Source: a virus (Duplodnaviria > Heunggongvirae > Uroviricota > Caudoviricetes). From it: DNA of 14,726 nt. The stretch lies in IMG/VR virus record IMGVR_UViG_2534681663_000009. One strand, 5' to 3'. The position numbers and the translations under genes were made by a program. Shown in pieces: positions 1 through 14,726 of the stretch; the stretch's first letter is position 1, and every line of letters starts with the position of its first letter. The notes under the pieces are model-generated. The model was not told the DNA's origin. It saw only the letters and a program-made list of their open reading frames with translations, and ran no database searches.

Positions 1-306
1 CTTATGAATCGTCCCCCGGCAGACCAGCCACCACGGCAAATCACTCTGCACCTGCAGCCGCCGGTCGGCCTCACTCAGCCAGGGCAGACCACCGGGGTGG
101 CTGTGGACCAGCGCCACAATCTCTCTCTGCATTTCTGCACTCAGCCAGTCCTCCGGCGACATCCGGAAATACTCCTCCGGCTCACCGGAGATATTCACGC
201 AGGGAAAATATCTTTCCTCCTCCGGCGTTCTCACCACGAAGCCGCACGACTCCGCTGGCGCACATCGCCGGGCGTGCGCCAGAATCGCTGATTCTGTCTC
301 TGTCAT
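1..306 (-). CDS. K: Tail tip assembly protein K (lambda gpK-like, MPN/JAMM plus NlpC/P60), 5' part only; 3' end lies beyond window start
   Basis: ATG at 306..304 (minus); frame open for 102 codons to position 1, translated by hand: MTETESAILAHARRCAPAESCGFVVRTPEEERYFPCVNISGEPEEYFRMSPEDWLSAEMQREIVALVHSHPGGLPWLSEAD... containing an intact JAMM motif H-x-H-x7-S-xx-D. Lies directly after L as in lambda. Absent from the ORF track because its stop is outside the window. Confidence 0.85.
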   Translation of the reverse strand, partial: MTETESAILAHARRCAPAESCGFVVRTPEEERYFPCVNISGEPEEYFRMSPEDWLSAEMQREIVALVHSHPGGLPWLSEADRRLQVQSDLPWWLVCRGTIHK

Positions 307-311
307 GGGAT

Positions 312-1010
312 TTACTGCGAAAGTTTGTTAATGGAAAGGAAGCTGCCAAAGTTGCCGACATTATTGCGAAACTTACAGCCACTCAGGCATTTGCTGCATT
401 TATCCTTCGTGATATCGGACGTCGGCTGGTCATATTCATCCGCGACCGCCGGACCGCTATAACCGCACTCATCGCCGCGATAGGTCCAGGTGCAGGTGTT
501 GGCCAGCATGATACGTCCCGGAAAAACAGCGCCATCCGTTTCAGTCGGCGTGGACAGTACAAAAGAGGCACTGACCGCGCTCAGTTCGCTGCACTGCTCG
601 ATGCGCCAGCGGCTGATCACCTCCTGCTCCGGATCGGCTTCGCTGTTTCCGTTGACGAAGTTCACCGCATCCAGAAAGCGGGCGTAAACCTTACGCCGGA
701 CCACCGTTCCGCCGACCAGACTCTGCAGATCTTCCGCCATCCCGGTGATCATGCCGTGCAGGTTAGAGACCGTCAGTGTCGGACGGGCAGCACTGCCCTT
801 GCCGTTCATCTCAAATCCACTCCCCTGAATGGGATAGGCCTGATACTGCCGACTCTGCCAGGTGACAGACTCACCTTTTTCGTTCTGCTCATTACAGAAA
901 AAGTAGCGATCCCCGCCTACCTCGGTCAGGTCGATTTCCCAGAGCACCACGCTGGCCGACTGCTCCGCACGAATGCATTCATTCAGCGTTTCCTGTTGTA
1001 TGTCCTGCAT
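312..1010 (-). CDS. L: Minor tail protein L (lambda gpL-like tail tip assembly protein)
   Basis: 232-aa ORF; start overlaps M stop in an ATGA arrangement at 1008-1012; C-terminal cysteine cluster (KDKCSKCLSGCKFRNN) as in lambda gpL; position between M and K. Near-identity to lambda L is from recall, not a search. Confidence 0.92.
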   Translation of the reverse strand: MQDIQQETLNECIRAEQSASVVLWEIDLTEVGGDRYFFCNEQNEKGESVTWQSRQYQAYPIQGSGFEMNGKGSAARPTLTVSNLHGMITGMAEDLQSLVGGTVVRRKVYARFLDAVNFVNGNSEADPEQEVISRWRIEQCSELSAVSASFVLSTPTETDGAVFPGRIMLANTCTWTYRGDECGYSGPAVADEYDQPTSDITKDKCSKCLSGCKFRNNVGNFGSFLSINKLSQ

Positions 1011-1306
1011 CAGATCACCACTTCGTCAAACTGACACGAAAAATCGGTATAGGTGATATGTTCTGTCGCTGACCACGTTCGACACACCACTCTGATTTTT
1101 CTGTTAATACCCGGCGGGCGCCAAAAAAAAGATTTATAGCCTTCATGCCGGGCTAAAAATTTTTCAAATGAATCACGTTCATTCGCCTCAACTTTGAAAT
1201 CACAGGTGAAAACGCGCAGAGAATGATTAAGTCCATTTGGACTTCGTTGCTCATAACCATCGCCAAATCTTACAGTTTTTATCGATGGTTTATTTTCTGT
1301 TTTCAT
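1010..1306 (-). CDS. M: Minor tail protein M (lambda gpM-like)
   Basis: ORF track starts at a GTG at 1348; the internal ATG at 1306..1304 is preceded by GAGGA about 5 nt upstream and gives MKTENKPSIKTVRFGDGYEQR..., resembling the lambda M N-terminus (VRFGDGY motif) at about lambda M length. Stop overlaps the L start. Confidence 0.82.
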   Translation of the reverse strand: MKTENKPSIKTVRFGDGYEQRSPNGLNHSLRVFTCDFKVEANERDSFEKFLARHEGYKSFFWRPPGINRKIRVVCRTWSATEHITYTDFSCQFDEVVI

Positions 1307-1340
1307 TCCATCCTCTGGTAACCAGTGAAATTCTTCCGTA

Positions 1341-4300
1341 TTAGCCACTTAACATTCCCCCATCACGTCGCATATTTAACAGATTGCCCTGCACCCGCTG
1401 ATCAACCATCCCCATAAGTGCTTTTATTGCCTGAGGGCCAATCTCTCCATTCTGGCCGTCATTTTGAATAGTGATTTGGTATACAGGGGCATAGGTAATA
1501 TCTCCGCCTCCATTACCACTTTTACTATTAATAGCTCTGACACCAAGAGAACCATCGGAAGTTCGTGTTAATGGCATAATGGCTTCCGGTCCAGCCTCAC
1601 CAAAAACACCAGCCCCTTTTGCAAAAGCAAAAAATTGCGGGGAATCATAAATACCGTTCGAATACGTGCTCAATGACGGAGACTCATAAACACCGCCCTT
1701 TGCATTCGGAATAAATTTACTAATAGCACTCCCGATAGTTCCTAAAATCCCCCCAGAAGAACTGTTACTAATGCTGTCGAAAATCCCAGTAATTGAAGCC
1801 TTTAATGCTATTCGACTAAGATCCGAAATCACGGAAGTAGCGAAAGAACGAAAATTTGCCTTGCCTGTCGTGACAAAATCACCCAGCGCATCGGTCATCC
1901 CATCAAACATCTGAGTCGTGGTTGATTTTATCTGCTCACTGATATCCTTAGTGTCATCCAGCCAGTTATTGAATCCCTGGGAGGCACCACTAACCCAGTC
2001 TCCTGCCTGAATATCGAGCTGCTCGTTTTTCTGTCTGACAATTTCTTTTTCCCGTTCCAGAGCATCATTCAGAGCCTGCATTTTCTCTTGAAAAACATGA
2101 TCTGACATTCCACGGGATTTATCTGCATAGTCACGTTCAAGTTGCAGACGCTGATTGTTATATCCATGTTCAATCCGCAGTAATTCCTGCTGGCGTTGCT
2201 GATTTTTATCGCCAACCCCATAACCAGCAATCTGAATATCATACCCCTGCTGACGATTATCAATCGAAGCCTGCAATGAATCACGCCATGCTGTTATTTC
2301 GGCGGATTCCTTGATTAGCCTGTTATTTTTTTCAATCGCAACATTTTTCTCCATCAACGTGGTTATTTCTTCCCGGTGTAAGAGAAGCGATTTCTGATCC
2401 TGGGTTAATTTCGATGATGGTCGTGACTCTAGGTCGGCAATCCGCTGACGCCACTTAACCAGTTCCTGTTCAGAGGAACTTAATTTAACGGTCAACTCAG
2501 CTTGTGAACTTAGTAACGCATTCTGTTGATTCAGATGATCAATCATTCGTTGGGCTGCATCATCAGAATAATCTTTCGCCTTTGGTTGCTTTGGATCTTT
2601 ATAACGCTCATTTATTTGAGCGATAAGATTATTATATTCTTCCTTTGAATACTGATTCTTTAGCTTTTCCAGTTTTGCAAGTTCACTAGCTCTCTGCTGC
2701 TCCCGGGTCTGATATTGTTTTGAAAAGGCATCTGCTCTCTGTCTGAGTTCAATTCCTTCCTGTTGTCGCTTGTTGTAATCGTTTATTGATGAATTTAGTA
2801 CGTCCTGAGCAATTTTTTCTGCTTGAAGTACGCCCAATTGCTGCTTTAATCGTGCCAGCCTTTTATTTTGAGCTCCGCCATCTCCAATGCCACCTAACCC
2901 GAAAACTCCGGATCGGGTATTTTTTTCTATTTCATCAATTTGACGGAGAACATCTGAGATTTTTTGATCAAGGGAGGCCTCACGGCCAATATCCAGCATG
3001 GAATCCCATGCCCATTTTGCGGAGTCTGCGACAGCTTTCCATGCAGTCTCAAGATAACCAAGATTTTCTTTAATCTGGTTGGTGCGCTGGATCATTGAGG
3101 ATGAGTATTCTTCTGTCGCAATGCGGGCGGCCTCCTGCTGGTTCCCTTCATCCTGTAGCGCCTTAATCTGGTTATAAGTCGCAAGTGTCAGAAAATGGTA
3201 CTGATCATTAAGTTTTGATATGGCACTGACAGGATCCTTTGCAATTTCATTGAAGTCATTAACCAGTTGTTCGGTTGATATTCCTGTTACTTCGCTCGTT
3301 TTTACTATCGCTGTCGTCACTTGCTCCAGCGAACTGCTCGCTACCTTTCCCGAACGCACAAGCTGATTTAATACTGCCGCCGCAGCACCAGTTGTCGAAT
3401 CAGCCGCATTCCCGGCACGTTGAGCTAAATCGCCCAATTGCCCGCTGGTTGTCCCCAACTGATTTCCGGTAAGAATAAGAGATTTATTAAATTCGTCCTG
3501 CTCCTGAGAGCCTTTATAGTAAGCCAGTCCTAAGACCCCAACGGCTGCTGCGGCCAGGGTAAAAGGATTAATTAATCCCAGCACATAAGAACCTACCCCT
3601 TTGATCGCCGGGCCAATCCCACCGAACATATCTTTTAGCTGGCCGCCCTGCTGCATTAACACCATAAATGGCGACTGACCAGTGGACAACCCAACAACAA
3701 TATCCGTCATTTGTGCAGGCAACATGCGCATAGCAAAAGCCGTTTGTTTTGCCGACATTCCGGTTTTGCTTAATTGTGATTGAGTAACCTCAAGCTCACT
3801 CCGCATAGCACGAAGTTTTCCAGAAAGCTCCTCATACATTTCAGGAGAAAGCATCCCCTTAGCTTTTGCTTCATTGAGCTGTTTCTGTTGTTCTACCAGA
3901 CGATTAAAAGCAGTTCCGACAGGATCAAGTTGAGCAATCAGACGTTGCAAAGCAACAACCTGTTCATCATGCGCTTTTGCTGCTTCTCGCTCTGCCTGAG
4001 CCTCTCCGGTAAGCTCTCGCCGTGTTTCCTGTATTTTTCGGCTATAATTCTCAAACTGAGAACCATTTATTTTCCCGGATGCAAACGCAGCATTAAGTTC
4101 ATCATGCTGTTGTTCAAGATTTCTTAGCGCCGCAGCCAGAGGGTCGATCTTGTCCAGCATTCTTTGAAAGGCCTGAGCCTGCGCTTCCTGCTGGGCGGCA
4201 GCAAGTTTTCCGGCCTTCTCGGCTTCTCTCTGCGCTTGCGCAACCCCGCTCAATTCCTCTGTGGTTTCATTAAGTTTACGGACAAGAAATTCATATTCTT

Positions 4301-4574
4301 CTTTATCAATAAGCCCTTTATCGAAAAATTTCTTTAATTCAGAATAGCGTCGACCGACAGTATCAATTGCGGCACCAACTGGATCAATAGCTGCTTTTAA
4401 TTTTGCGAGCGCGTTCTTCTCATCTTCTGTTGCCTTAGTCACTTTCCCTGCGCTATTTGCAGCAGTTTCCCCAGCCTGCGTCATTTTGACTAATGAGGAG
4501 GTCAGATTGTCAGCATTATTTTTCGCTCCAGTGCTATCAATAATTATTGCGAGACGCGAGGTTTGCTCTGCCAT
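1341..4574 (-). CDS. Tail tape measure protein (1077 aa; lambda gpH-like C-terminal region)
   Basis: Largest ORF, between the tail chaperone and M; N-terminal coiled-coil region with three tandem ~75-aa repeats, central hydrophobic segments (…FMVLMQQGG…VGVLGLAYY), C-terminal motif [13 protein letters not shown]; ATG at 4574 with AGGAG about 9 nt upstream. Confidence 0.93.
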
Positions 4575-4594
4575 TTATTAAAACTCCTGACAAC

Positions 4595-4620
4595 AAAAAA
4601 CCCACCGCGAAGTGGGTTTC
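4595..4620 (-). terminator. Rho-independent terminator-like hairpin plus U tract in the spacer between the T-frame stop and the tape measure start
   Basis: Minus-strand RNA: AAACCCAC-UUCGCG-GUGGGUUU followed by UUUUUUG; stem of 5-8 bp. Lies 15-20 nt upstream of the tape measure SD. Confidence 0.5.
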
Positions 4621-4739
4621 AGGCGACATAATAGTAGATATAGCGATTACGAGGCCACGCAATGCTTTTCTCCAGGAGCATCATCGATTTAATTAAAGAC
4701 ACCATCACATCTCTGTAACAGAGTGTACGTAATTAACAA

Positions 4740-5509
4740 CTACACACACTGCTCCTGAAAATACTGGTCATCCAGTGCAAAGATCACTGCTTCAAATTCA
4801 TCGCGCTCAATCAATACCGGATGAGTGGCTAAATATTCATTTATCTCTGTCAGAGATAAAGGCAAAGGCACCCCAGCCATTCCAGCATAACGTCGGGCAC
4901 GGGATATTACCGAATAGGCGTACAACAACTCCTTAAGCACCGGGTCTATTTCTGGTTCCGGTATCGGTGGCAACCTGAGTTTTTCTCGCTTCCATCTTGC
5001 CTTTTCCCCCCTTTCTCCCCCGAACTCCGATAACCACCGCTGGGCAGCTATGGCTTTTTTATCGTATCCTGCTTCTGCTGCTCTTTACCCTGGGCGATGC
5101 TGGCTGCTTCTGCAAGGATCTGCCAGTACAACTCTGGATTCTGCTTAAGCAGCGCGATCCCTCGTTCTGCCGTATATTCCAGTGCAACCTCAACACCATT
5201 AACCAGTTCACCAACCCCTTTCCAGTCTTTCAGCAGATAACGAGCGGCATTATCAATGAGTAAATCATCAACAGAATCCACCTCGGAAACCTTTGAAATA
5301 TCAAACTCCTTCGTTCCGACGTGCAAACTGGCATCCATTTTCTCAATGTGGCGACGGATTAATGCATTACGGGAGCGATACTGATCGTTATCGCTGCTTG
5401 CCACCAACAGTTTTAACCCGTCTACAGGTTTTAAGTCCTTCATTGGCGTAAACCAGCGTTCTCCACCAATGATAATTTTCTGATTAAGAATAAACATCCA
5501 TAACCTCAT
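4740..5509 (-). CDS. Tail assembly chaperone frameshift fusion (gpGT analogue) made by -1 programmed ribosomal frameshifting
   Basis: The -1 frame is open from 5084 down to the stop at 4740-4742 and overlaps the end of the G frame; the only slippery heptamer in the overlap is A_AAA_AAG at 5060..5054 (minus). Predicted fusion is about 255 aa. The ORF track shows the downstream part as a 77-aa ORF with an artificial TTG start. Confidence 0.65.
5048..5509 (-). CDS. Tail assembly chaperone (lambda gpG analogue), zero-frame product
   Basis: 153-aa acidic ORF immediately downstream of the major tail gene and upstream of the tape measure; ends two codons after an A_AAA_AAG heptamer. Start could be ATG 5509 or ATG 5497 (the latter has GAGG about 8 nt upstream). 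Confidence 0.75.
   Translation of the reverse strand: MRLWMFILNQKIIIGGERWFTPMKDLKPVDGLKLLVASSDNDQYRSRNALIRRHIEKMDASLHVGTKEFDISKVSEVDSVDDLLIDNAARYLLKDWKGVGELVNGVEVALEYTAERGIALLKQNPELYWQILAEAASIAQGKEQQKQDTIKKP
5054..5060 (-). other. -1 slippery heptanucleotide A_AAA_AAG (X_XXY_YYZ in the G frame)
   Basis: Plus strand 5054-5060 is ctttttt; on the minus strand the G frame reads ATA AAA AAG CCA TAG, so the heptamer is A AAA AAG two codons before the G stop. Confidence 0.6.
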
Positions 5510-5557
5510 TCAATGCGTCCCCCTGTAGGGCAGTACCACAGGAGGAATAACGGAAAA

Positions 5558-6520
5558 TCAACTAATCGCCTCAGCACTGGCTTTTGCGATCACGGCAGCC
5601 GGGGAATTTTTTTTTCTGGTTATCGTAGGTGCTTCATCTGCTGCGGTAATGCTCAATTGAACCTGGATAATGTCGCTATTACCCCCATCAGGCCATTCAC
5701 CTGACACCTGAACCTTCGGGAAACTGAAAGTGTATGCCCCCTCTCCATTCGAAAGCGTGAAGCTGAACGGAACTGTTTCTCCAGTCAGTGTTTTACTCCA
5801 GATTTCCCACGCGGCTTTAGACCATGAAAGCGTCACCGTACCGGACGGTGTAAAAGTAGTCGGAATATTTGCTCCTGCATAAGGCGAGCCAGTCCCGATA
5901 CAACGCTGTGTCTGGAGTTTGTTATCGAACTGAATATCAAAACTGTCGATACAAAAACCGTTACCTCCGGCAACACCATTCAGGCTTACTGCTGAAACCT
6001 CCTTAAACGAATAACGTAGCTTTCCTGCACTATCCACAGGTTCGCCTTTGATAAAATTCGTATCATCGGCCTTTGATTCCCAGTCCAGTCCGGCAAAGGT
6101 TACGGTCGCTGTAATATCGCCGTCGTTAGGGATCTGCATTTTCCATGAGCCAACCTGCGCTCCTCTGACGACAGAGGCAATTCCGACATCGGACGCATAG
6201 GTCGCCAGAGAAAATGTTATTCGCTCATTCCCCATTGTCAGAGAATCGCCTGACCATTCCGCGCCGAAACAGGATGCAAGAAAATCATCATGTTGACCCC
6301 AGCGAAATTTGGTACCAACATCACCGCCGACATCCACAGTGCCAGGCGTCGCCCCCTGAGCCATCCGGGAGCCACCAATCTCATTATTTTCGCCTTTATT
6401 CTGGGTGGGTTTTACTCCCCAGCTTGTGCGTTTTAATAAACTCCAGTCACCACTTGCTGGCGTAGTGCCTGCAACCGTCTCCCGGATAAATGCCGAGATA
6501 ACCTTTGCACCTGAACTCAC
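5558..6520 (-). CDS. Major tail (tube) protein
   Basis: 320-aa ORF between the neck genes and the G/GT chaperone pair; GTG start at 6520 with AGGAGG 6 nt upstream; Thr/Ser/Gly-rich beta-type composition typical of siphovirus tube proteins. Confidence 0.78.
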   Translation of the reverse strand: MSSGAKVISAFIRETVAGTTPASGDWSLLKRTSWGVKPTQNKGENNEIGGSRMAQGATPGTVDVGGDVGTKFRWGQHDDFLASCFGAEWSGDSLTMGNERITFSLATYASDVGIASVVRGAQVGSWKMQIPNDGDITATVTFAGLDWESKADDTNFIKGEPVDSAGKLRYSFKEVSAVSLNGVAGGNGFCIDSFDIQFDNKLQTQRCIGTGSPYAGANIPTTFTPSGTVTLSWSKAAWEIWSKTLTGETVPFSFTLSNGEGAYTFSFPKVQVSGEWPDGGNSDIIQVQLSITAADEAPTITRKKNSPAAVIAKASAEAIS

Positions 6521-6546
6521 AGGAGCCTCCTATGTCATTAATTGCG

Positions 6547-6939
6547 CTAGAGCGCGCGATATGGAATTTGAAGATTAAGCTGGAACCAGCCATTCTTTTC
6601 GCCAACGGCTATTGAGGAAACAGCCTGGTAACTGAGACGATCGTCATCCTGAAACTCAAACAGTTCCCGCAATTTATCGGCTGTCTCAGTAATGAGTTTT
6701 GAACCAGAACCTGCGGGGACAAATAACTGAATAATGATTATCCCCGTGCGATAAACAATCGGCCCCGCGCCAATTTCATTAACTCCAGCCTGCCCGGGAA
6801 TATTACTTAACCGCGCCCAGATTAACTTACCGGAAGGATCGAACGTTGGCGCGTTCGGATACAATACGTCTTTTCCATCAATAATCGTCTGTGCCGTCAT
6901 TCTGGAAATAACCGTATTTCTGATTTCAGTAAACGTCAT
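6547..6939 (-). CDS. Tail terminator / tail completion protein (gpU-position protein)
   Basis: 130-aa ORF immediately upstream of the major tail gene; ATGA overlap with the preceding gene stop (6936-6939). Function assigned from synteny only. Confidence 0.55.
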   Translation of the reverse strand: MTFTEIRNTVISRMTAQTIIDGKDVLYPNAPTFDPSGKLIWARLSNIPGQAGVNEIGAGPIVYRTGIIIIQLFVPAGSGSKLITETADKLRELFEFQDDDRLSYQAVSSIAVGEKNGWFQLNLQIPYRAL

Positions 6940-7316
6940 TTGTAAGCCTGTAAAACACCATGAAAAGCGTTGGCATACACGCCAGTTGGCGCTTGTTGTG
7001 AATGACCGTTTTCAAGAGCCTCTGCATAAGGAAGGTTATTCTGGATATAAATAACTCCGTAATTTGCAGCTTTCGAAATAACCCCGATCCCACGCTGAAC
7101 AGCAATCGTACCGTTCGGATCCACGTTATCAGATATACCAAAATCGGGATGCTGTAACGACACCAGGTTGTTATTTCTGAAACGTCCGGTATCAACCGGA
7201 GCAGCAATATCAATAGCAGTAAGAATCTGAATAGCGATGTAGCGAATCTTCAGCCCTACATCTTCCTCAATCATCCCGGCAAATATTGACGGTTCTATAT
7301 CCCATGCCTTTGCCAT
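6936..7316 (-). CDS. Neck / tail-completion protein, HK97 gp10-like family
   Basis: 126-aa ORF; contains a DTGRFRNN-type motif that I recall as characteristic of the HK97 gp10 family; third of four small connector genes; adjacent TAA-ATG junction with the upstream gene. Confidence 0.55.
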   Translation of the reverse strand: MAKAWDIEPSIFAGMIEEDVGLKIRYIAIQILTAIDIAAPVDTGRFRNNNLVSLQHPDFGISDNVDPNGTIAVQRGIGVISKAANYGVIYIQNNLPYAEALENGHSQQAPTGVYANAFHGVLQAYK

Positions 7317-7700
7317 TTACGCTCTCCTTAACTGGATAGAGTAAACTGATGCGGAAGGATCTACACTTGCTGTAATTACCTCGTATCGTTGTAACTGCCT
7401 TGATACAGGATCATAAATCTCAATAATATGGTCGACAGCTGGTTTATCCGTAACCTCGCATACCAGAGCGGTTAATTTAAGGTCACCATGCAAAATATTA
7501 ATCCCATCAATTCTGCCCAGCTTATAACGTGTCAACACGCCTCGCCCGGTATAGATTGCGGTGGATTCGCCGCCAGTTTCCGTCACAGGATCCCAGTGCC
7601 GGTGCGTAACGTAAGAACCAGAAAAATCACTCACGGCGTCCGCTAAATCCTCATCAAAAGCAGCGGCAACCTCTGACTGAATCTCTTCACGAAGCCCCAT
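7317..7700 (-). CDS. Head closure / head-tail joining protein
   Basis: 127-aa ORF, second gene after the capsid gene; start overlaps the upstream stop (TAATG at 7698-7702). Synteny-based call. Confidence 0.5.
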   Translation of the reverse strand: MGLREEIQSEVAAAFDEDLADAVSDFSGSYVTHRHWDPVTETGGESTAIYTGRGVLTRYKLGRIDGINILHGDLKLTALVCEVTDKPAVDHIIEIYDPVSRQLQRYEVITASVDPSASVYSIQLRRA

Positions 7701-8095
7701 TATCCCCCCCTCACAACCCTGACTTGTGAGCGACTAAGTCCGTACGGTTTCAGCAGTGCTATCGCAAGCTGTAAATCGGGTTCAAGCAATGCAGTGCTGT
7801 TTGCTGGCAACTCAGAAAATGATTTCGATACACTGACCCCGTCAGCCGACACGGCTTTACTGATAACAACGCCAGAATCATTTTTCTGCTGAAACAACTT
7901 ACCGAATGAGGCAATTCTGGCTGCATATGCTCCCGCAAGTTTTACCTCTTCCGGAATACGGGATGGGTTAATTTTCAGGTTGAAGCCATTAAGCCAGGCA
8001 TTAGCCATTAAAACAGCTTTATTTTTAGCGTTCTCACTCGTCCAGGCGTTCCCAAACGCATTATCAACGTCATCACAGGTCACGTAAGTGATCAT
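7700..8095 (-). CDS. Head-tail connector (gp6-like adaptor)
   Basis: 131-aa ORF, first conserved connector gene downstream of the capsid gene; N-terminus MITYVTCDDVDNAFG...AWLNG resembles the gp6-like connector pattern; ATG at 8095. Confidence 0.55.
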   Translation of the reverse strand: MITYVTCDDVDNAFGNAWTSENAKNKAVLMANAWLNGFNLKINPSRIPEEVKLAGAYAARIASFGKLFQQKNDSGVVISKAVSADGVSVSKSFSELPANSTALLEPDLQLAIALLKPYGLSRSQVRVVRGG

Positions 8096-8098
8096 GTG

Positions 8099-8275
8099 TT
8101 ACTCCTGAGTTTTCCAGCCCATAGCCTTCCAGTTGTCAACTTCATCAGGATGAACATTAGCGATAGTTGGTGCGCCGGGAAACATCTGATAATCGGTCAC
8201 CATAACCACTAACTCAATTTGCGTTTTTTGTGCGGCTTCACGCTGTGCTCTTTGCTCTTTAGTTAATCCGGCCAT
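8099..8275 (-). CDS. Hypothetical small head-associated protein (58 aa), not in the ORF track
   Basis: ATG 8275..8273 to TAA 8101..8099, translated by hand: MAGLTKEQRAQREAAQKTQIELVVMVTDYQMFPGAPTIANVHPDEVDNWKAMGWKTQE. Its stop is 3 nt before the connector ATG (8095), so it is translationally coupled; G-rich run (GGGGGG) 3 nt upstream of the ATG. Confidence 0.4.
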   Translation of the reverse strand: MAGLTKEQRAQREAAQKTQIELVVMVTDYQMFPGAPTIANVHPDEVDNWKAMGWKTQE

Positions 8276-8284
8276 ATGCCCCCC

Positions 8285-8307
8285 ATTAAAAATGGGGCCG
8301 AAGCCCC
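8285..8307 (-). terminator. Rho-independent terminator-like hairpin immediately downstream of the major capsid gene
   Basis: Minus-strand RNA: GGGGC-UUCG-GCCCC followed by AUUUUUAAU; begins about 10 nt after the capsid TAA stop (8318-8320). Confidence 0.5.
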
Positions 8308-8317
8308 GTTTGAATGT

Positions 8318-9457
8318 TTAACCAAGAATCAGACAACCATGTGCCGGCTTCACTGATGAAACACCCCATGCCAGTCCAACTTCATAGCGCACCTGGCGAT
8401 ACTGACGATACAGTGCAATCTGGAACGTAATCCCTGAAATCGGGTCCGTAACATTCATTACATCATCAGCATTATCGCCACCTTCCGGCATTGCCGGAGT
8501 ACGGGATGCCAGCAGAAACGCGTTGCGATCAAACGCCATATTTGCCGTAAAGGCCCCAACAACTGTGATGGCAGTATCATCGGCCAGATCCTGACGCAGT
8601 CCGGGCGCTGCAAGAGTAATCAGATTGCTGGTCGCTGCTGCCACAACATACTGATTCGGATCACCAGCGAACGTAACAATCTGACCTGCAGAAATACTCC
8701 CCGAACCAGTATCAATGGAAATAAGAACATCGCCTTCTTTTTTCTCTCCATTCACGAGATAACCAGTTGCAGCAACCTTTGGCGCTCGTTTCACACCTGC
8801 CGAACTGTGAATATTGAATCCCTCCAGACGCCCCAACACGCCCTCACGCAGTAGCTGTTCAGTGCCGGATTCATTCACTTTAAACAATACAGACTGTTTT
8901 CCGCGCAAATTAGCAATGGCAGTGGAGCCAAGCACCATCTGCAGATCGGTTGTCGGTGCGCCGTTATCCTCCAGAACCTGACGAGCCAGAGCAGCATCAG
9001 AAAGATCATCTTTAACACCAAACGGCGTTGTCCCTGCGGTTCCCACGGCGCGGGAAGCACCGAAATACAACGCACCAAGATCAGCCTCAACCTCGTTTGC
9101 AAGGGCGCGAAAAGCCTGCTTGAACTGATCAGCCAGAATGGTGTTGTAAGTCCCTGAAGGGCCAAGAGCCAGTTGTTCTTCACCATTCCATTTAACCGGT
9201 GCCATTTTGGATTTAGTAATTTTTACATCAACAGTGCCAATATTTTGATCACCGGTATTCGGAGCTGACGGCCCCGGTACGATATCTTCGGTTTTCGCCT
9301 CAGGCGCAACTGGCGCGGTTACCGTCTGATCTTTTGCTGCGGCGTCAGCTTTTACGTTTTTTGCTACCGCAGGGATAAAACCTACCTGCTCACGGGATAC
9401 AACATCCAGGGCGGTATAAATAGTCGGGATCAACCCGGTCAGGGTATTTCCAGCCAT
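8318..9457 (-). CDS. Major capsid protein
   Basis: ORF track gives 410 aa from a TTG at 9550 with no SD; the ATG at 9457..9455 has AAGGAA about 9 nt upstream and gives about 379 aa (MAGNTLTGLIPTIY...). Follows the scaffold gene and precedes the connector genes; size typical of HK97-fold capsid proteins. Confidence 0.78.
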   Translation of the reverse strand: MAGNTLTGLIPTIYTALDVVSREQVGFIPAVAKNVKADAAAKDQTVTAPVAPEAKTEDIVPGPSAPNTGDQNIGTVDVKITKSKMAPVKWNGEEQLALGPSGTYNTILADQFKQAFRALANEVEADLGALYFGASRAVGTAGTTPFGVKDDLSDAALARQVLEDNGAPTTDLQMVLGSTAIANLRGKQSVLFKVNESGTEQLLREGVLGRLEGFNIHSSAGVKRAPKVAATGYLVNGEKKEGDVLISIDTGSGSISAGQIVTFAGDPNQYVVAAATSNLITLAAPGLRQDLADDTAITVVGAFTANMAFDRNAFLLASRTPAMPEGGDNADDVMNVTDPISGITFQIALYRQYRQVRYEVGLAWGVSSVKPAHGCLILG

Positions 9458-9555
9458 AATTAAATATTCCTTAAAAATTTGCGTAATTGTGAATAGATGG
9501 AGTAATGAGCTATCCAGCCCTGACACCAGCTCCCATCCGGAAGCTGACAAATGTG

Positions 9556-10320
9556 TTAATCAACGATTGTGATACCGTCTTTCAATGCGTTTTGCTTACC
9601 TGCAACATCCAGTGCATCAAAAGCAGAGCGTTTCATCGTTTTCTGACCAATATCATGCTGTGTCGGACGGGAGCCGCCGCCATTGTTGCCACTGGCTTTC
9701 AGGATGTAGTCTTTCTGAGGGTAATTTTCGACAAGGAACTCCAGCGCCTCATCAAACTGCGCCAGTTCGCCAGGCTTCGCGCGGGAATAAATTTTGTTGC
9801 CGGAAGCGTCATAAGCAACGATCTTCCCTTCTTCCACTTTGAATGCCTGCCCGAAGCGGGCTTGTAATAAATCTGCCGGGATCGCAATTTTATCGGCAAT
9901 ATATTTTGAACCCGCAAAACTACCGCCAATCATAGAATCGTAAAGCTGCGTCTCCAGCATCTGAGAGCGTTGCTTTTCTTCATCTAATTGCTGCTGAAAA
10001 TTTTTCGTAATTTCTGCCTTAACCTGGTCAACCTGTCCCGCATCGATCAGCTTTTTCTGGTCGATTTTTAACAGCATTTCCAGTGCCTCGATCGCCTTCT
10101 TCGGGTCTTCGATAGCGGCAAACTTAGCCAGTTTTTCCTCTGCAGCTTCTTTAGCCAGGCGATGATTTTTTGCCTCGCCATTAAGCTCTGTAATTTTTTT
10201 TATCGCCAGCGGTGCATCGAAGCCGATTTCTTTACCATCGTCGTGCACATAAACTGGCAGGCCAGCAGTATCAATTTCTGCGTATTGTTTTCCGTTAATC
10301 TCGACCGTTTTCAGTTTCAT
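9556..10320 (-). CDS. Capsid scaffolding protein
   Basis: Track ORF starts at a GTG (10392) that lies inside a terminator hairpin; the first ATG at 10320..10318 gives about 254 aa (MKLKTVEINGKQY...). Charged, helical, Lys/Glu/Ala-rich; sits between the head morphogenesis and capsid genes. Confidence 0.6.
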   Translation of the reverse strand: MKLKTVEINGKQYAEIDTAGLPVYVHDDGKEIGFDAPLAIKKITELNGEAKNHRLAKEAAEEKLAKFAAIEDPKKAIEALEMLLKIDQKKLIDAGQVDQVKAEITKNFQQQLDEEKQRSQMLETQLYDSMIGGSFAGSKYIADKIAIPADLLQARFGQAFKVEEGKIVAYDASGNKIYSRAKPGELAQFDEALEFLVENYPQKDYILKASGNNGGGSRPTQHDIGQKTMKRSAFDALDVAGKQNALKDGITIVD

Positions 10321-10380
10321 ATTAGTACCTGGTTTAAGTCTTCCGACAGTTACGCTGCTCACCATCCGGATCGCAGCAAT

Positions 10381-10404
10381 AAAAAAGGCCACCCGAAGGT
10401 AGCC
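10381..10404 (-). terminator. Rho-independent terminator-like hairpin between the head morphogenesis and scaffold genes
   Basis: Minus-strand RNA: GGCUACC-UUCG-GGUGGCC (7-bp stem with one G-U pair, UUCG tetraloop) followed by UUUUUUAUUG; about 20 nt after the upstream gene stop (10425-10427). Confidence 0.55.
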
Positions 10405-10424
10405 TGTTGTAATAAATGATTTAT

Positions 10425-11540
10425 TTAAATCCCTGCTTTTCTGAATACCTGTGCATCACGCTCACGGAGTTGCTTCAGCGTCAGCCATTCGCCTTTATCG
10501 GTGTAAAATTCATCTGGCGACATACCGCCATCCCGAATCAGCTTTGCCCGGGTTTCCCCCACAATCTGTTTTTGTCTGGTGTAAGGCTGACGCAAAAACC
10601 ATTCCCTGTAGGTTGTATCTCCGGCCACCACGCCATCCATGCTGGCCCGCTCAGCCGGGGAAATATCACGAACATCAATACCCAGTTCCTTCGCTGATTT
10701 CAGAATGAACGTTTCCGTTGAGCGGCAGCAGAAATGAATTTTTCCCGGCCCATGCAAATAAGGCACACTGTGACCTACAGGTTTATTATCCAGCGTATAT
10801 TTGAGGAGATCCCTGATTCGACATTGTGGCGTAGTACGATTATCAAGCGTTGATAACCATTGCTTACCCTTAATCAAATCATTATTCGCGCTGGCAAAAC
10901 TCTCACGGGCAGTAGCAGCAAGATGTCCAACCGCTGTTTTTGCAATGCTGGCCGCATTAGCCCGGCTCATCTGCAATGCACCATCCTGAAATCCCTTGCT
11001 GACATGTCCCCGAATTTTTCTTGCGATCTGCTCATTGGTATCCCCCAGCAAAAAACCCTGACGCACCGTATTTGTTATGCGTCTGAGCCGATCCGCCTCA
11101 AGATCCAAGGCCCACTCACTGAGCAGTCGTCCCTGGAATGGTCGCGCCATTGCAGCGGCGTAAAGTGCATCAGAAGATATACCAACCAGAGGGTGAACAT
11201 CAGCAACAAAATCAGGTAGCAGAGAATCAAACAGACTTAACTGATAACCAGCCTCATAAATTGCCAGCTCGTTCAGCTCTCCGGAGAGACTGGTAAACAT
11301 GCTGTTAATAGCAGCGCGGTTAACCTCTCTGACACTCGCCAGAAGTGACTCCAGGCGCGTAACGGTAAAACTACCAGGATCGAGGCTGTCCAGTGCTACC
11401 AGCAGGCGAGCTGTAAGCTCCGCATCGCTGTCATTCAGTATTTTCACCATTCTGGCAGCCACACCAGTGCTATAGCGGGATATCCAGACTGCATGAGCAA
11501 TTGATTCATCACGCAGCCGTTCATTCACGGTTTGCATCAT
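10425..11540 (-). CDS. Head morphogenesis protein (Mu F-like / SPP1 gp7 family)
   Basis: 371-aa ORF directly after the portal gene, overlapping it by about 20 nt; contains an H-x-C-C-R-S motif (GKIHFCCRST) resembling the conserved HxNCRC signature of Mu F-like proteins. Confidence 0.75.
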   Translation of the reverse strand: MMQTVNERLRDESIAHAVWISRYSTGVAARMVKILNDSDAELTARLLVALDSLDPGSFTVTRLESLLASVREVNRAAINSMFTSLSGELNELAIYEAGYQLSLFDSLLPDFVADVHPLVGISSDALYAAAMARPFQGRLLSEWALDLEADRLRRITNTVRQGFLLGDTNEQIARKIRGHVSKGFQDGALQMSRANAASIAKTAVGHLAATARESFASANNDLIKGKQWLSTLDNRTTPQCRIRDLLKYTLDNKPVGHSVPYLHGPGKIHFCCRSTETFILKSAKELGIDVRDISPAERASMDGVVAGDTTYREWFLRQPYTRQKQIVGETRAKLIRDGGMSPDEFYTDKGEWLTLKQLRERDAQVFRKAGI

Positions 11541-12927
11541 TGATTTCCATCAACATTACACTCTGATTTTTTAATTCATCGATCACATCCTCTGGACGGG
11601 AATCCTGATCGATAAATTTCAACGCCTGCAACACCCGAACCGCATCAATCTGACGTATATCACCGCCCTGACGCAATGACTGAACAGCCAGCGCGGAGGA
11701 TGAGTCAAACACCTGGGCAGATACATCCAGTTCAGTGCGCACATCCACATTGCCACCGCAACTCTCTCCGCTCCATTCCGCCATTATCTGGAGAATATTA
11801 TCGAGGGCATCTTCGAGGGAGTTCGCCATTGTATAAAGCGGCGAGTGTTCCTGCATCCGCTCTTCATTAGTCTGATCAACAGATTTGGTGGATGTATTTT
11901 CAGCCCGCAGAAGTTTAGCGCCGGCATGACGCATCTGATTTTCCAGCTTCTCAAGTGATGTTTCGCCAGATTCTATCGCTGCGCCACTATGTTCAACATA
12001 TTCGAGGCCATTTTTTGTTCTGTCCTCAAAAATCGTAGCCGTGGATGCACCAACCGTCAGTTCTTCATTCCTGTCCAGCCCGTAGGCCACCAGCAATGGA
12101 ACGCGGGCAACATGAAGAATATTGTCCTGCTCGCTCTGGCTTTGCCAGTGCTTGATATTCAGCAAGCCAAGATTAAGCAATGGCGGTGTACCACGCATAA
12201 ACCCTGTTTTCTTCGTATACAGTGTTACCAGAGGAATATCATCACGGCTGGTATTCCATGACTCATGAAGCATCCAGACAGATTCGCCATTAGTACCTTC
12301 GCTGCGTCGATAAATTTCTACTCGACGGGGCATAATATGGCGGATCTGCTCCACCTTCTTCTGCCCGAAATCATCACCATCAATAATGATGACCTCTTTT
12401 ATACGCAAATCAGTGAGAACAACTTTCCCTTTTTCAACTTTCGATTTCCATCCAATAACCTGGCGTGGATTCAGCATCGTAACGTACGGGCGACCACCGG
12501 CCGCGTTTTCATCGGCTTTTGTCCGAATCTCGTTCATATCCGTTCGTGGATAGTCCACCAGCGCATGTGCCACACCATACTGAAATGCGAGACTGAAAAA
12601 TTGCTGCGCCCACACATCCAGTCGGCTCCCCTCCATGTCGATATTTTCTGCATATTCCCTGATTTTTTCCGGCGTTTCCTCACTCAATACTGTCGGCTCT
12701 GCAAATATGCGCCCAATATTTTGTTTGATGCTTTCTTCATACACAGGAAGTAACGTAGCCACAGACAGGCGTTTTTTATAAGCGTCTTCATCTTCATTAG
12801 GCCATTTGGGGAGATAATTTTCCCCCTGCCTGCGCATTTCAAGCGTACCGCCCATCAATGCGTCGTTAATATCCCACGCCTCCAGCATATCGTTATAGTC
12901 GAGGTTGGGTGTTGATATATCAGCCAT
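11521..12927 (-). CDS. Portal protein
   Basis: 468-aa ORF immediately downstream of terL (TAA-TT-ATG junction at 12925-12932); size and position typical of portal proteins. Confidence 0.85.
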   Translation of the reverse strand: MADISTPNLDYNDMLEAWDINDALMGGTLEMRRQGENYLPKWPNEDEDAYKKRLSVATLLPVYEESIKQNIGRIFAEPTVLSEETPEKIREYAENIDMEGSRLDVWAQQFFSLAFQYGVAHALVDYPRTDMNEIRTKADENAAGGRPYVTMLNPRQVIGWKSKVEKGKVVLTDLRIKEVIIIDGDDFGQKKVEQIRHIMPRRVEIYRRSEGTNGESVWMLHESWNTSRDDIPLVTLYTKKTGFMRGTPPLLNLGLLNIKHWQSQSEQDNILHVARVPLLVAYGLDRNEELTVGASTATIFEDRTKNGLEYVEHSGAAIESGETSLEKLENQMRHAGAKLLRAENTSTKSVDQTNEERMQEHSPLYTMANSLEDALDNILQIMAEWSGESCGGNVDVRTELDVSAQVFDSSSALAVQSLRQGGDIRQIDAVRVLQALKFIDQDSRPEDVIDELKNQSVMLMEINDANRE

Positions 12928-12929
12928 AA

Positions 12930-14231
12930 TTAAATCCGAAGTGATGTGACTCTTCCGGTCGGTTTGACAATAGGGAATTGCTTAACGATGAAATAACCTC
13001 CGGCATCATTCGGGTGATCATTGCCAGATTTTTTATCAGGCTCCCCCTTATCATCCCAGACCTGTTGCTCCAGAGATTCGGCATATACCGGACAACGCTT
13101 CACATTAACTTTATAGCGACGCTCACCATTGGCATTGCAGAACATTGCATTCATTGAGTTAACGCGATCTTTTACTGGCGGGTTCGAGCTGTTCACCACA
13201 ACGTTAAAACCTGCCTGCTTAAGCTGGGCTATATCCGTCGTACTTGCGTTACTTGATTTTCTGGAATCTCCGGAAGCATCTGGATAAATATAAATCTCCC
13301 TCACTTTCCGGTAATCATGCCCGTCATACAGCCAGAAGCGTTCTTTAATGAGGCGGATCATATCCGGCGTATCGTAGGCATTGATGATTTCAGTTACCGC
13401 ACATGGAAGCCCCAAACGCAGCACATGGACGATTCCCGCCATCTTTCCAACGTTAAAATCCATCCCAATATAAATCGGCTCCCCTGGCTGCTCCACTTCT
13501 TCGCAATTATTCAGTTTCCGGTCAAACTGATGGTAAACAGTACCACTTGTCAGGTTAGTAAACCGTCCTAGAAGATAGGCTTTAATCAGCTCTGGAGGGT
13601 ATGATTCAAGAAGTGAAGGAATGTAATCTGCTGGCAGGTTCTTTTCATTATCGAAAGTAGATGCCTGCACCAGACCATACAGTGAGGCCAGCTCTGTTTT
13701 TTCACGCACGGCTTTAACAAACTGCTCGTAGACAAATTTGAATCCTTCCGGCGTGGTTGTAACGTCAATACCGTTGCGAAGTCCATCAATCTTATAACGC
13801 ATACGCGCAATTATCTTGCGCCACGCCGTTCTGGCTTTTTCCTTCGGCAAAATGTCCAGTTCATCCACCAGCGCATTACCAATTTTGAAACCGACGATCG
13901 TTTGTGGCTTCTCCATCGATCTGCAGATAGTGGTTCCCCGATACTGGCGTCCGTAATAAAAGTGAACCTCTTTATTTCCCTCATTAATTTTTACGTTCAA
14001 TCCCCAGTCAGCAGCAACTTCTTCCACTGTAGGGTAAAAAATATCGCGAATTTGGGGATACGTTGGCGCAAAATATCCCTGATTTATACCTGGATGCTCC
14101 CAAATCCCCTTGCATATGCCGCCACACCCAACCCATGTTTTGCCCGAGCCAAAACCAGCAATATAGGCTTTAAATTTATGGGGCATTGAAAGAAATCGCG
14201 CCTGAGGCACATTAAGCGTCGGAGAGATCAT
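12930..14231 (-). CDS. Terminase large subunit
   Basis: Walker A P-loop AGFGSGKTW near the N-terminus; C-terminal acidic nuclease-type motifs (YIYPDASGDS, GNDHPNDAGG); ATG at 14231 is best placed relative to AAGGAG (8-nt spacer), with alternative starts at GTG 14240 and ATG 14237. Confidence 0.9.
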   Translation of the reverse strand: MISPTLNVPQARFLSMPHKFKAYIAGFGSGKTWVGCGGICKGIWEHPGINQGYFAPTYPQIRDIFYPTVEEVAADWGLNVKINEGNKEVHFYYGRQYRGTTICRSMEKPQTIVGFKIGNALVDELDILPKEKARTAWRKIIARMRYKIDGLRNGIDVTTTPEGFKFVYEQFVKAVREKTELASLYGLVQASTFDNEKNLPADYIPSLLESYPPELIKAYLLGRFTNLTSGTVYHQFDRKLNNCEEVEQPGEPIYIGMDFNVGKMAGIVHVLRLGLPCAVTEIINAYDTPDMIRLIKERFWLYDGHDYRKVREIYIYPDASGDSRKSSNASTTDIAQLKQAGFNVVVNSSNPPVKDRVNSMNAMFCNANGERRYKVNVKRCPVYAESLEQQVWDDKGEPDKKSGNDHPNDAGGYFIVKQFPIVKPTGRVTSLRI

Positions 14232-14535
14232 CTTCATCACTCCTTAATCTGGCATCAACCACATTAATATTGATCGCCACAGGCTGGGGATGTTCATTAT
14301 CCTCCACCGTTTCGATCTCTTTGCGCAGCTTCTGGTTCTCTATTCTGCGCCGTTCAATTTCCAGTTCCTGTAGCCGCTTATCTGCACATAATGCCCCGCC
14401 AGCAGAAAGCAAACGCAACAATTCACGCCGGGCGGCAGCCTTATCCTCCAGCAGGATCTCAACACCGTATTTTCCGAGCTTTGACCCTGCATATAATTGC
14501 CGCGCATCCCCATCAAGCAGTGTGGTATCAGCCAT
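14212..14535 (-). CDS. Putative terminase small subunit
   Basis: 107-aa ORF overlapping the terL start by about 20 nt; coiled-coil centre and acidic C-terminus; first gene of the module. Assigned by synteny only; no HTH motif recognised. Confidence 0.5.
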   Translation of the reverse strand: MADTTLLDGDARQLYAGSKLGKYGVEILLEDKAAARRELLRLLSAGGALCADKRLQELEIERRRIENQKLRKEIETVEDNEHPQPVAININVVDARLRSDEDDLSDA

Positions 14536-14584
14536 ATAAAGCTGTCCTGTTCCCTCACCGCAGCACTTCGGGCAATCAGGATTG

Positions 14585-14726
<142 letters not shown>

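Follow-up and report, generated by a model that had tools for sequence, protein, structure and literature searches.

Introduction

Mosaicism among lambdoid phages and recombination between phage lambda and the Rac prophage of Escherichia coli have long been established. Here we examine a 14,726-nucleotide stretch of tailed-phage DNA (IMG/VR record IMGVR_UViG_2534681663_000009), called the window throughout, which is very probably the late (virion-structural) operon of a full-length Rac-type lambdoid prophage of Escherichia, built of three layers of distinct ancestry, one of which, at the left end, has been exchanged repeatedly. The architecture is the standard and widespread Rac type, the mosaicism is of the textbook lambdoid kind, and the sequences are already deposited and annotated; a further case matters little beyond correct annotation. 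For annotation, it identifies the "hypothetical" genes beside ydaY in hundreds of E. coli genomes as an intact Rac virion module, K-12 ydaY as a tail chaperone, and K-12 ynaA as the front of a tape measure.

The Rac prophage of K-12 MG1655 holds window positions 3640-5399 only (99.94% identity; L010 16630-18389), a remnant consisting of ydaY, the adjoining T-part and the first 311 codons of the tape-measure gene, annotated as ynaA or ynaA/tmpR. Because K-12 keeps no more than this, the window represents the intact form of a structural module that K-12 Rac has lost. The 1.76-kb K-12 piece is edged by two deletions, one fusing ynaK to ydaY and the other fusing tape-measure codon 311 to lomR. Other Rac relatives, Escherichia phage vB_EcoS-666R9 (ON470614) and Salmonella phage SPF_0923 (ON032529), are alike in gene order and early genes; ON470614 has intR, ydaQ, ralR, recT, recE, racC, kil and sieB upstream, as well as trkG and the same structural block.

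In the lambda tail, a hexameric gpM ring docks on the tube via its β-sandwich face, the E-loops of gpM stack electrostatically on the gpL/gpJ ring, and the C-terminal helix of the tape measure gpH is held in the lumen of the tip by a gpI trimer (PMC10721106). Recombination of lambda with Rac over tail-fibre DNA of 88-95% identity has been measured, and is largely dependent on Red-β (PMC3945230).

An earlier reading of the window, which we refer to as the original prediction, had described lambda-type tail-tip genes, an A+T-rich tape measure and neck, and a non-lambda head cassette, recently assembled with joints near the M/tape-measure and chaperone/tape-measure boundaries. Below we confirm the mosaic, place its sharp joint elsewhere, and find its head-to-shaft part to be old and its tip alleles recent.

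Results

The operon reads on the minus strand, from a terS gene cut by an insertion sequence (IS) to the start of K, and all real genes lie on that strand, as do all features given below unless stated; gene families were called by Pfam and PHROGs scans plus the annotation of identical copies. Megablast matched window 2-14592 to ten deposited phage records at 98-99% identity, and at least 80% of the window to 693 of 5,426 complete E. coli genomes at 98-100% identity, many at 100%; the median genome has three places that match the window. The flanks fall outside the window; in relatives at 98-100% identity the block is flanked by ompN-uspF-pinR-tfaR-stf-lom-J-I-K on one side and by ynaK-trkG plus lysis genes on the other. 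Every gene finds its best match in the same Rac-type records, at 98-100%, which is formally an outcome that the original prediction had named as counting against a mosaic. The mosaic itself is confirmed: the tip is of the lambda type, the adjoining head and tail-shaft cassette is not, and the two differ in composition and in nearest relatives.

The lambda-type part occupies the left end of the window. Positions 1-306 hold the first 102 codons of the tail-tip gene K, of the C40 peptidase family, cut by the window start and annotated as a C40 family peptidase in the closely related prophage of strain CI5; L, the minor tail (hub) protein, follows at 312-1010 (Pfam Phage_tail_L, E 7e-98). Both had been predicted to resemble lambda, and the resemblance is strong: K is 96% identical in amino acids to lambda K and 98% to K of phage PhiR49_1, L is 94% identical to lambda L and 99% to that of PhiR49_1, and the two are orthologues of the lambda genes in the order M-L-K, as in a lambda-type tip. 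Lambda DNA matches window 1-1032 at 92.6% nucleotide identity and matches nothing elsewhere in the window. More than 200 lambdoid phage records outside the Rac family likewise match window 1-1032 only.

The similarity ends in the last codons of M, the distal tail protein (1010-1348; Pfam Phage_min_tail, E 1e-31). A probe spanning window 633-1432 found matches in 4,202 E. coli genomes, of which 715 complete genomes have the joint intact; in those sampled from the remainder the match ends exactly at window 1032, and matches on the M side only were absent from a spread sample of 60 of 4,226 records. The joint is present in Shigella and E. ruysiae too. Alignment of the Rac and lambda lineages of M shows that they share only the last 22-23 nt of the gene, which encode ...F-D/E-x-V-V and include the overlapping stop and start codons (TGATG) of M and L. 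This stretch, 1010-1032, is 100% conserved across all Rac copies, and L varies just downstream. The sharp joint of the window sits at this M/L boundary, not between M and the tape measure.

Base composition changes at the same place. Window 1-1032 has 57.3% G+C and 1033-14592 has 46.8%, so that the sharp shift claimed in the original prediction is real; in a likelihood scan compared with mononucleotide shuffles, the strongest change point falls at about position 971 (log-likelihood ratio 23.6, shuffle maximum 6.7), within about 60 nt of where hundreds of lambdoid phages cease to match at the nucleotide level. G+C at third codon positions (GC3) is 0.67 in L, the same as in the lambda left arm (nu1-J, including lambda H and M), against 0.35 in M, 0.39 in the tape measure and 0.38-0.50 in all other genes; K has 58% G+C.

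Beyond the joint, the sequences of M and the tape measure indicate old and A+T-richer homologues of lambda M and H. M had been called lambda-like, and this holds at the level of the family, with 42% amino-acid identity to lambda M; it does not hold for DNA, which matches only in the last 22-23 nt. The G+C content of M is 41%. Among species-representative genomes M recurs at 97-99% identity in Escherichia and Shigella only, the next relatives being at most 44% identical, and an intermediate or ancestral partner of the Rac-type M, such as an adjoining A+T-rich L, was found in none of 185,579 such genomes. An apparent second joint inside M in one copy proved to be an IS1-mediated deletion of the tape measure.

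The tape measure (1341-4574) has 1077 residues, against 853 in lambda, and carries Pfam TMP_2, TMP_4 and, in its last third, Tape_meas_lam_C (E 4e-26). It is 28% identical to lambda H over residues 270-1077 and shares with it the C-terminal motif IGPxAxKA...RDGGxxSG. With M in the Phage_min_tail family and a lambda C-terminal domain on the tape measure, both belong with a lambda-type tip despite identities of 42% and 28%; the gene order H-M-L-K and the Pfam families of H, M and L are those of lambda, K having been checked solely by its match to lambda K. Over residues 1-737 the protein shares 42% identity with the tape measure of Klebsiella phage 5 LV-2017 (KY271399), and the similarity falls to background beyond about residue 740 (about window 2350). 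A second and weak G+C change point lies at about 2971 (42.4% in 1033-2970, 47.6% beyond; log-likelihood ratio 9.1). The C-terminal half of the tape measure has, in the phage collection, no relative outside Rac above 36% identity over most of its length. These similarities suggest that the tape measure is a homologue of the lambda H family that is itself a hybrid, with an older and weaker transition inside the gene.

From the N-terminal part of the tape measure to terS the window resembles other phages. The head, neck and tube proteins have no blastp match in lambda below E 0.1, and nothing of a lambda head module is present: the tube, chaperones, neck and whole head are unrelated to lambda V, G/T, U, Z, FII, W, B, C, D, E, A and Nu1, and the head Pfam families (Terminase_6, DUF4055, Phage_Mu_F, DUF6651, P22_CoatProtein) are not those of lambda. 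In Klebsiella phage 5 LV-2017 and in related K. pneumoniae prophages (ST405-OXA48phi1.3 and others) the genes are collinear from terS/TerL to the tape measure, whereas the tail-tip gene set after the tape measure is a different one. Escherichia phage HK639 shares a cassette of portal, MuF, scaffold, capsid and a 58-residue protein at 50-75% amino-acid identity, and differs in its terminase, adaptor, head-closure, terminator and tube genes. Matches of the Klebsiella phages and HK639 are confined to parts of window 2350-14592.

The genes of this block, read in the direction of the operon, were compared with both phages. TerL (12930-14231; Terminase_6N and Terminase_6C, with the Walker A motif GFGSGKT in its translation) is 87% identical to its counterpart in Klebsiella phage 5 LV-2017, and HK639 has no match. 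The portal (11521-12927; DUF4055, E 7e-45), annotated as such in KY271399 and HK639, is 80% identical to the Klebsiella protein and 69% to that of HK639. The corresponding values are 74% and 50% for the Mu-F-like minor head or head morphogenesis protein (10425-11537; Phage_Mu_F; phrog_241, E 1e-179), 80% and 67% for the scaffold (9556-10320; DUF6651, E 2e-61; phrog_206, head scaffolding protein, E 1e-22), 83% and 75% for the major capsid protein of the P22-coat family (8318-9457; Pfam P22_CoatProtein, E 7e-13), and 68% and 62% (HK639 gp07) for the conserved 58-residue protein that travels with the head cassette (8099-8275; phrog_1514). Pfam and PHROGs thus bear out the head gene content and order of the original prediction, namely a TerL with Walker A motif, portal, Mu-F and scaffold.

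In the neck and shaft, the head-tail adaptor Ad1 (7700-8095; phrog_493, E 7e-49) is 60% identical to its Klebsiella homologue, head closure protein Hc1 (7317-7700; phrog_161, E 1.5e-28) 71%, the tail terminator (6547-6939; Pfam Phage_tail_terminator_5, phrog_179) 68%, the major tail tube protein, which is not of the lambda V type (5558-6520; Pfam Phage_tube_2, E 9e-32), 71%, the G-like tail assembly chaperone encoded by ydaY (5048-5407; phrog_313, E 1e-37) 75%, and its T-like extension (4740-5060; phrog_1189 and, weakly, Pfam Phage_TAC_18) 63%; none of these has a match in HK639. The tail completion or Neck1 protein, called gp10-like in the original prediction (6936-7316; phrog_169, E 3e-55), is a local outlier at 37% to the Klebsiella phage and 38% over 90 residues to HK639. 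The tape measure, at 42%, is a second outlier, and the remainder lies at 60-87%. M, L and K have no homologues in the Klebsiella phage and are 31-38% identical to those of HK639. The G+C content of the Klebsiella phage is 50-59%, against 44-51% here. Because the head-to-tape-measure genes are collinear in the Klebsiella prophages, we conclude that the head-to-tail-shaft block is an old unit. The mosaicism spans several time scales, as is the rule among lambdoids.

The left end has a different recent history. In CI5 the lambda-like tract extends over 4.6 kb, from L through K and I into J, with 92% identity to lambda and 98.3% to PhiR49_1, and the similarity drops in the receptor-binding end of J. 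Among seven Rac copies the sequence right of position 1010 is 97.5-100% identical. Two regions were compared there, one holding M and the tape-measure C-terminal half and the other running from tube to neck, and in both the identity is at least 98.4%. The pairwise identity of L and K together between Rac copies is 92.6-99.8% (up to 7.4% different), and that of L alone across the seven copies 91.7-100%. L and K of the window are nearest those of PhiR49_1, a lambda-headed phage (98.8%); those of GPEC1446 are 96.9% identical to lambda and just 94.0% to the window; and those of MMC-J-0085 are 92-93% identical to all the others compared, with divergence that begins 14 nt into L beside an M that is 99.7% identical. 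From these comparisons, recent and repeated exchange appears to be confined to the L-K(-I-J) allele, where some Rac copies are nearer to lambda or PhiR49_1 than to each other.

Discussion

We consider it very probable that the window comprises three layers. The first (1-1032) would be a lambda-type hub and host-range module, which in relatives runs on through I and two thirds of J, and which would have been swapped repeatedly between prophages of the Rac type and other lambdoids, with its right edge fixed at the M/L junction. The second (1033 to about 2350/2970), the C-terminal part of the tape measure together with M, would be an anciently diverged, Rac-specific lineage of lambda H and M. The third (about 2350/2970 to 14592), from terS through the tube and a frameshifted chaperone pair to the N-terminal part of the tape measure, would be an old unit inherited together. 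Since the M ring of the lambda tip sits between the tube and the L/J ring, the genetic joint falls at a physical interface, and M, together with the C-terminus of the tape measure, may act as an adaptor that fits a non-lambda shaft to a lambda-type tip. As a clean natural module joint at a protein-protein interface, the M/L boundary could guide host-range swaps between lambdoid tails.

The simplest account of the exchange is homologous or short-homology recombination with other lambdoid phages, through RecA or through an annealase, Red-β or Rac RecT; Rac itself encodes RecET. Long homology would be available on one side, in J, lom and stf, and on the other only the conserved stretch of about 20-36 nt at M/L, unless the partner is itself of the Rac type. 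Taken furthest, this would make the conserved 20-36 nt a functional exchange point at which L-K-I-J cassettes are plugged into lambdoid prophages whose tail shafts are unrelated, the Rac M ring and the C-terminus of the tape measure an evolved, tolerant adaptor linking a non-lambda tube to many alleles of the lambda-type tip, and Rac both a standing reservoir and a recipient of Escherichia host-range modules, a proposal that we regard as speculative and on present evidence unlikely.

Several points weigh against our reading or narrow it. We infer the exchange mechanism at the M/L junction, and the conservation of 22 nt there could come from translational coupling and a conserved M C-terminus (F-D/E-x-V-V) rather than from use as a crossover; exchange of different L alleles between one Rac prophage and another needs no crossover at the junction. 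The detailed comparison covers seven Rac copies, and the lack of M-only matches refers to the spread sample of 60 out of 4,226 records. The second and third layers have no crisp boundary, since composition changes at about 2971 and homology to the Klebsiella phage stops at about 2350, and tape measures diverge fast everywhere, so that the second layer may be partly an effect of rate and not a discrete joint. The phage records stem from surveying the genomes of clinical isolates for phages, and not from phages shown to form plaques; that Rac-type prophages give viable particles is an assumption from deposited records.

The alternative that survives best, which we consider improbable while taking it seriously, is a single origin of the joint by illegitimate recombination, with selection for function maintaining it thereafter and M/L never serving as a crossover; the variation in L and K would then reflect recombination between Rac prophages or gene conversion of L-J. 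Selection is said to place novel lambdoid joints at gene boundaries, in what is known as the Hendrix/Juhala model, and a single origin is also favoured by the brevity of the shared stretch, 22 nt being very short for RecA, and by the overlapping stop and start codons and the L ribosome-binding site, which could explain why the junction is conserved. It fits less well with MMC-J-0085, where the change from a near-identical M to a divergent L within 14 nt of the start codon argues that exchanged tracts end at or near the junction, and with the ability of phage annealases to act on short, diverged homology (PMC3945230).

Repeated exchange of the L-K end on an old head-to-shaft block also has to be set against the history given by the original prediction, a recent assembly of three modules with joints at M/tape-measure and chaperone/tape-measure, which now seems very improbable. 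That history has on its side the real G+C step near the left end, the lower-G+C stretch inside the tape measure, and head genes unrelated to those of lambda. Its joint positions are already contradicted. The similarity to lambda stops at 1032, in the last codons of M, and what lies beyond is an M of 41% G+C and 42% identity; the chaperone, T-part and tape-measure N-terminus are contiguous in K-12 Rac (99.94%) and collinear in the Klebsiella phages. A joint at the head/neck or the chaperone/tape-measure boundary was considered and rejected, as neither has a composition change point and the Klebsiella relatives are collinear across both. Nor does the assembly look recent, the architecture being fixed in the 715 genomes and in E. 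ruysiae, with an old head block and only L-K(-I-J) recent. The hand counts of single 60-nt lines on which the prediction drew were roughly right (58.3, 56.7, 33.3, 40.0, 28.3 and 40.0% when recomputed), but the low ones are extremes: lines right of the joint average 46.8% G+C (standard deviation 6.4), and 2581-2640 (28%) is the regional minimum. Of the A+T-rich tape measure and neck, the claim stands, weakly, for M and the C-terminal half of the tape measure (about 1033-2970, 42.4%), and fails for the neck, whose genes (44-47% G+C) are not distinct from those of the head (46-51%).

Could the step in composition, on which part of the case for layered ancestry draws, reflect the constraints of individual genes, such as A+T-rich tape measures and small tail proteins or the influence of expression level on codon use, and not ancestry? 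Tape measures are biased in composition and rich in coiled coil, and the tape measure of the Klebsiella phage also has its lowest G+C (50%, against 52-59% for most neighbours; the scaffold too has 50%). Lambda H (59%) and M (56%), however, have the same G+C and GC3 as lambda L and K, and composition therefore tracks lineage and not gene function; the step also lies within about 60 nt of the end of lambdoid similarity, and the whole region to its right has a GC3 of 0.35-0.50, against 0.67 in L. For the main step this explanation is essentially refuted and deserves hardly any credence, and it may contribute to the weak step at 2971. That the mosaic is an assembly artefact, a chimeric contig joining two prophages at a shared repeat, can be dismissed: several near-identical L-J regions per E. 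coli genome are repeats of a kind known to cause misassembly, but the identical joint recurs in 715 complete genomes, which include many closed long-read assemblies, and also in ten phage records, Shigella and E. ruysiae.

Other features of the operon

The short TerS of the original prediction is a truncated one. In CI5 terS is continuous and full length (1095 nt, L001 31211-32305; Pfam Terminase_2); the window holds its 3' third (14212-14592), the C-terminal 126 codons of 364, cut after about codon 238 by an IS3-family element. The phage match to CI5 stops at window 14588-14592, and two elements of strain GF75, both annotated as IS3-family transposase elements, have ends 100% identical to window 14585-14726, which assigns the last 134-142 nt of the window (14585/14593-14726, without strand assignment) to the terminus of such an element; its other end and the target duplication fall beyond the window. 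The element in terS is an additional difference of this copy from Rac. As one continuous match, the terS/IS3 insertion occurs in none of the 30 best-ranked complete E. coli genomes of the whole-window search, in which a copy with the insertion would be expected to rank first. Because terS is interrupted by this element, the prophage copy in the window should be unable to package DNA. In GPEC1446 (L009 15653-16350) an IS1A has displaced the 5' end of M together with nearly all of the tape-measure gene, another case of IS-driven decay in the same operon.

The chaperone pair named above has the sequence features of a G/GT-type programmed -1 frameshift. Its canonical slippery heptamer, A AAA AAG (5060-5054), precedes the ydaY stop by two codons; the -1 frame, already open ahead of this site, continues for about 105 more codons to a stop at 4740, and we take the frameshift as predicted. 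The T-part stretch is left unannotated by RefSeq in CI5, and in GF75 it bears only a separate 77-residue open reading frame.

Three G+C-rich hairpins with TTCG loops and T tails lie between MuF and scaffold (10386-10405), between capsid and the 58-residue gene (8294-8307), and between chaperone and tape measure (4597-4620), and the HK639 record annotates terminators in the equivalent intergenic gaps. They look like internal terminators of the late operon that would be passed by antiterminated polymerase. The total count of terminator-like hairpins in the window equals chance, and the three in intergenic gaps alone are worth noting. Promoter-like sites in the window are fewer than in shuffles (11 against 20.6), and Rfam at gathering thresholds, Tandem Repeats Finder and ARAGORN returned nothing in the window.

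Several phage records label the Mu-F protein an NAD+--asparagine ADP-ribosyltransferase. The only assignments from Pfam and PHROGs are Mu-F/head morphogenesis, and no additional C-terminal domain is present; the label appears to have been carried over in annotation.

From MuF to terS (10421-14588) the Rac copies fall into two allele classes, at 95.5-98.9% in 666R9, MMC-J-0085 and GPEC1446 and at 99.7-100% in CI5 and GF75, which hints at further exchange within the family; the neck-to-capsid segment is 99.4-100% identical throughout the Rac family. Just past the right end of the window (in CI5, L001 32496-33428 and 33958-34215), intact relatives encode a member of the TET-associated glycosyltransferase family (PF20691, E 5e-35), which also goes under the label GREB1-related. 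The gene adjoins the ParB/Srx-like ynaK, directly upstream of terS, and is deleted in K-12; it may provide Rac-type phages with a DNA-modification function.

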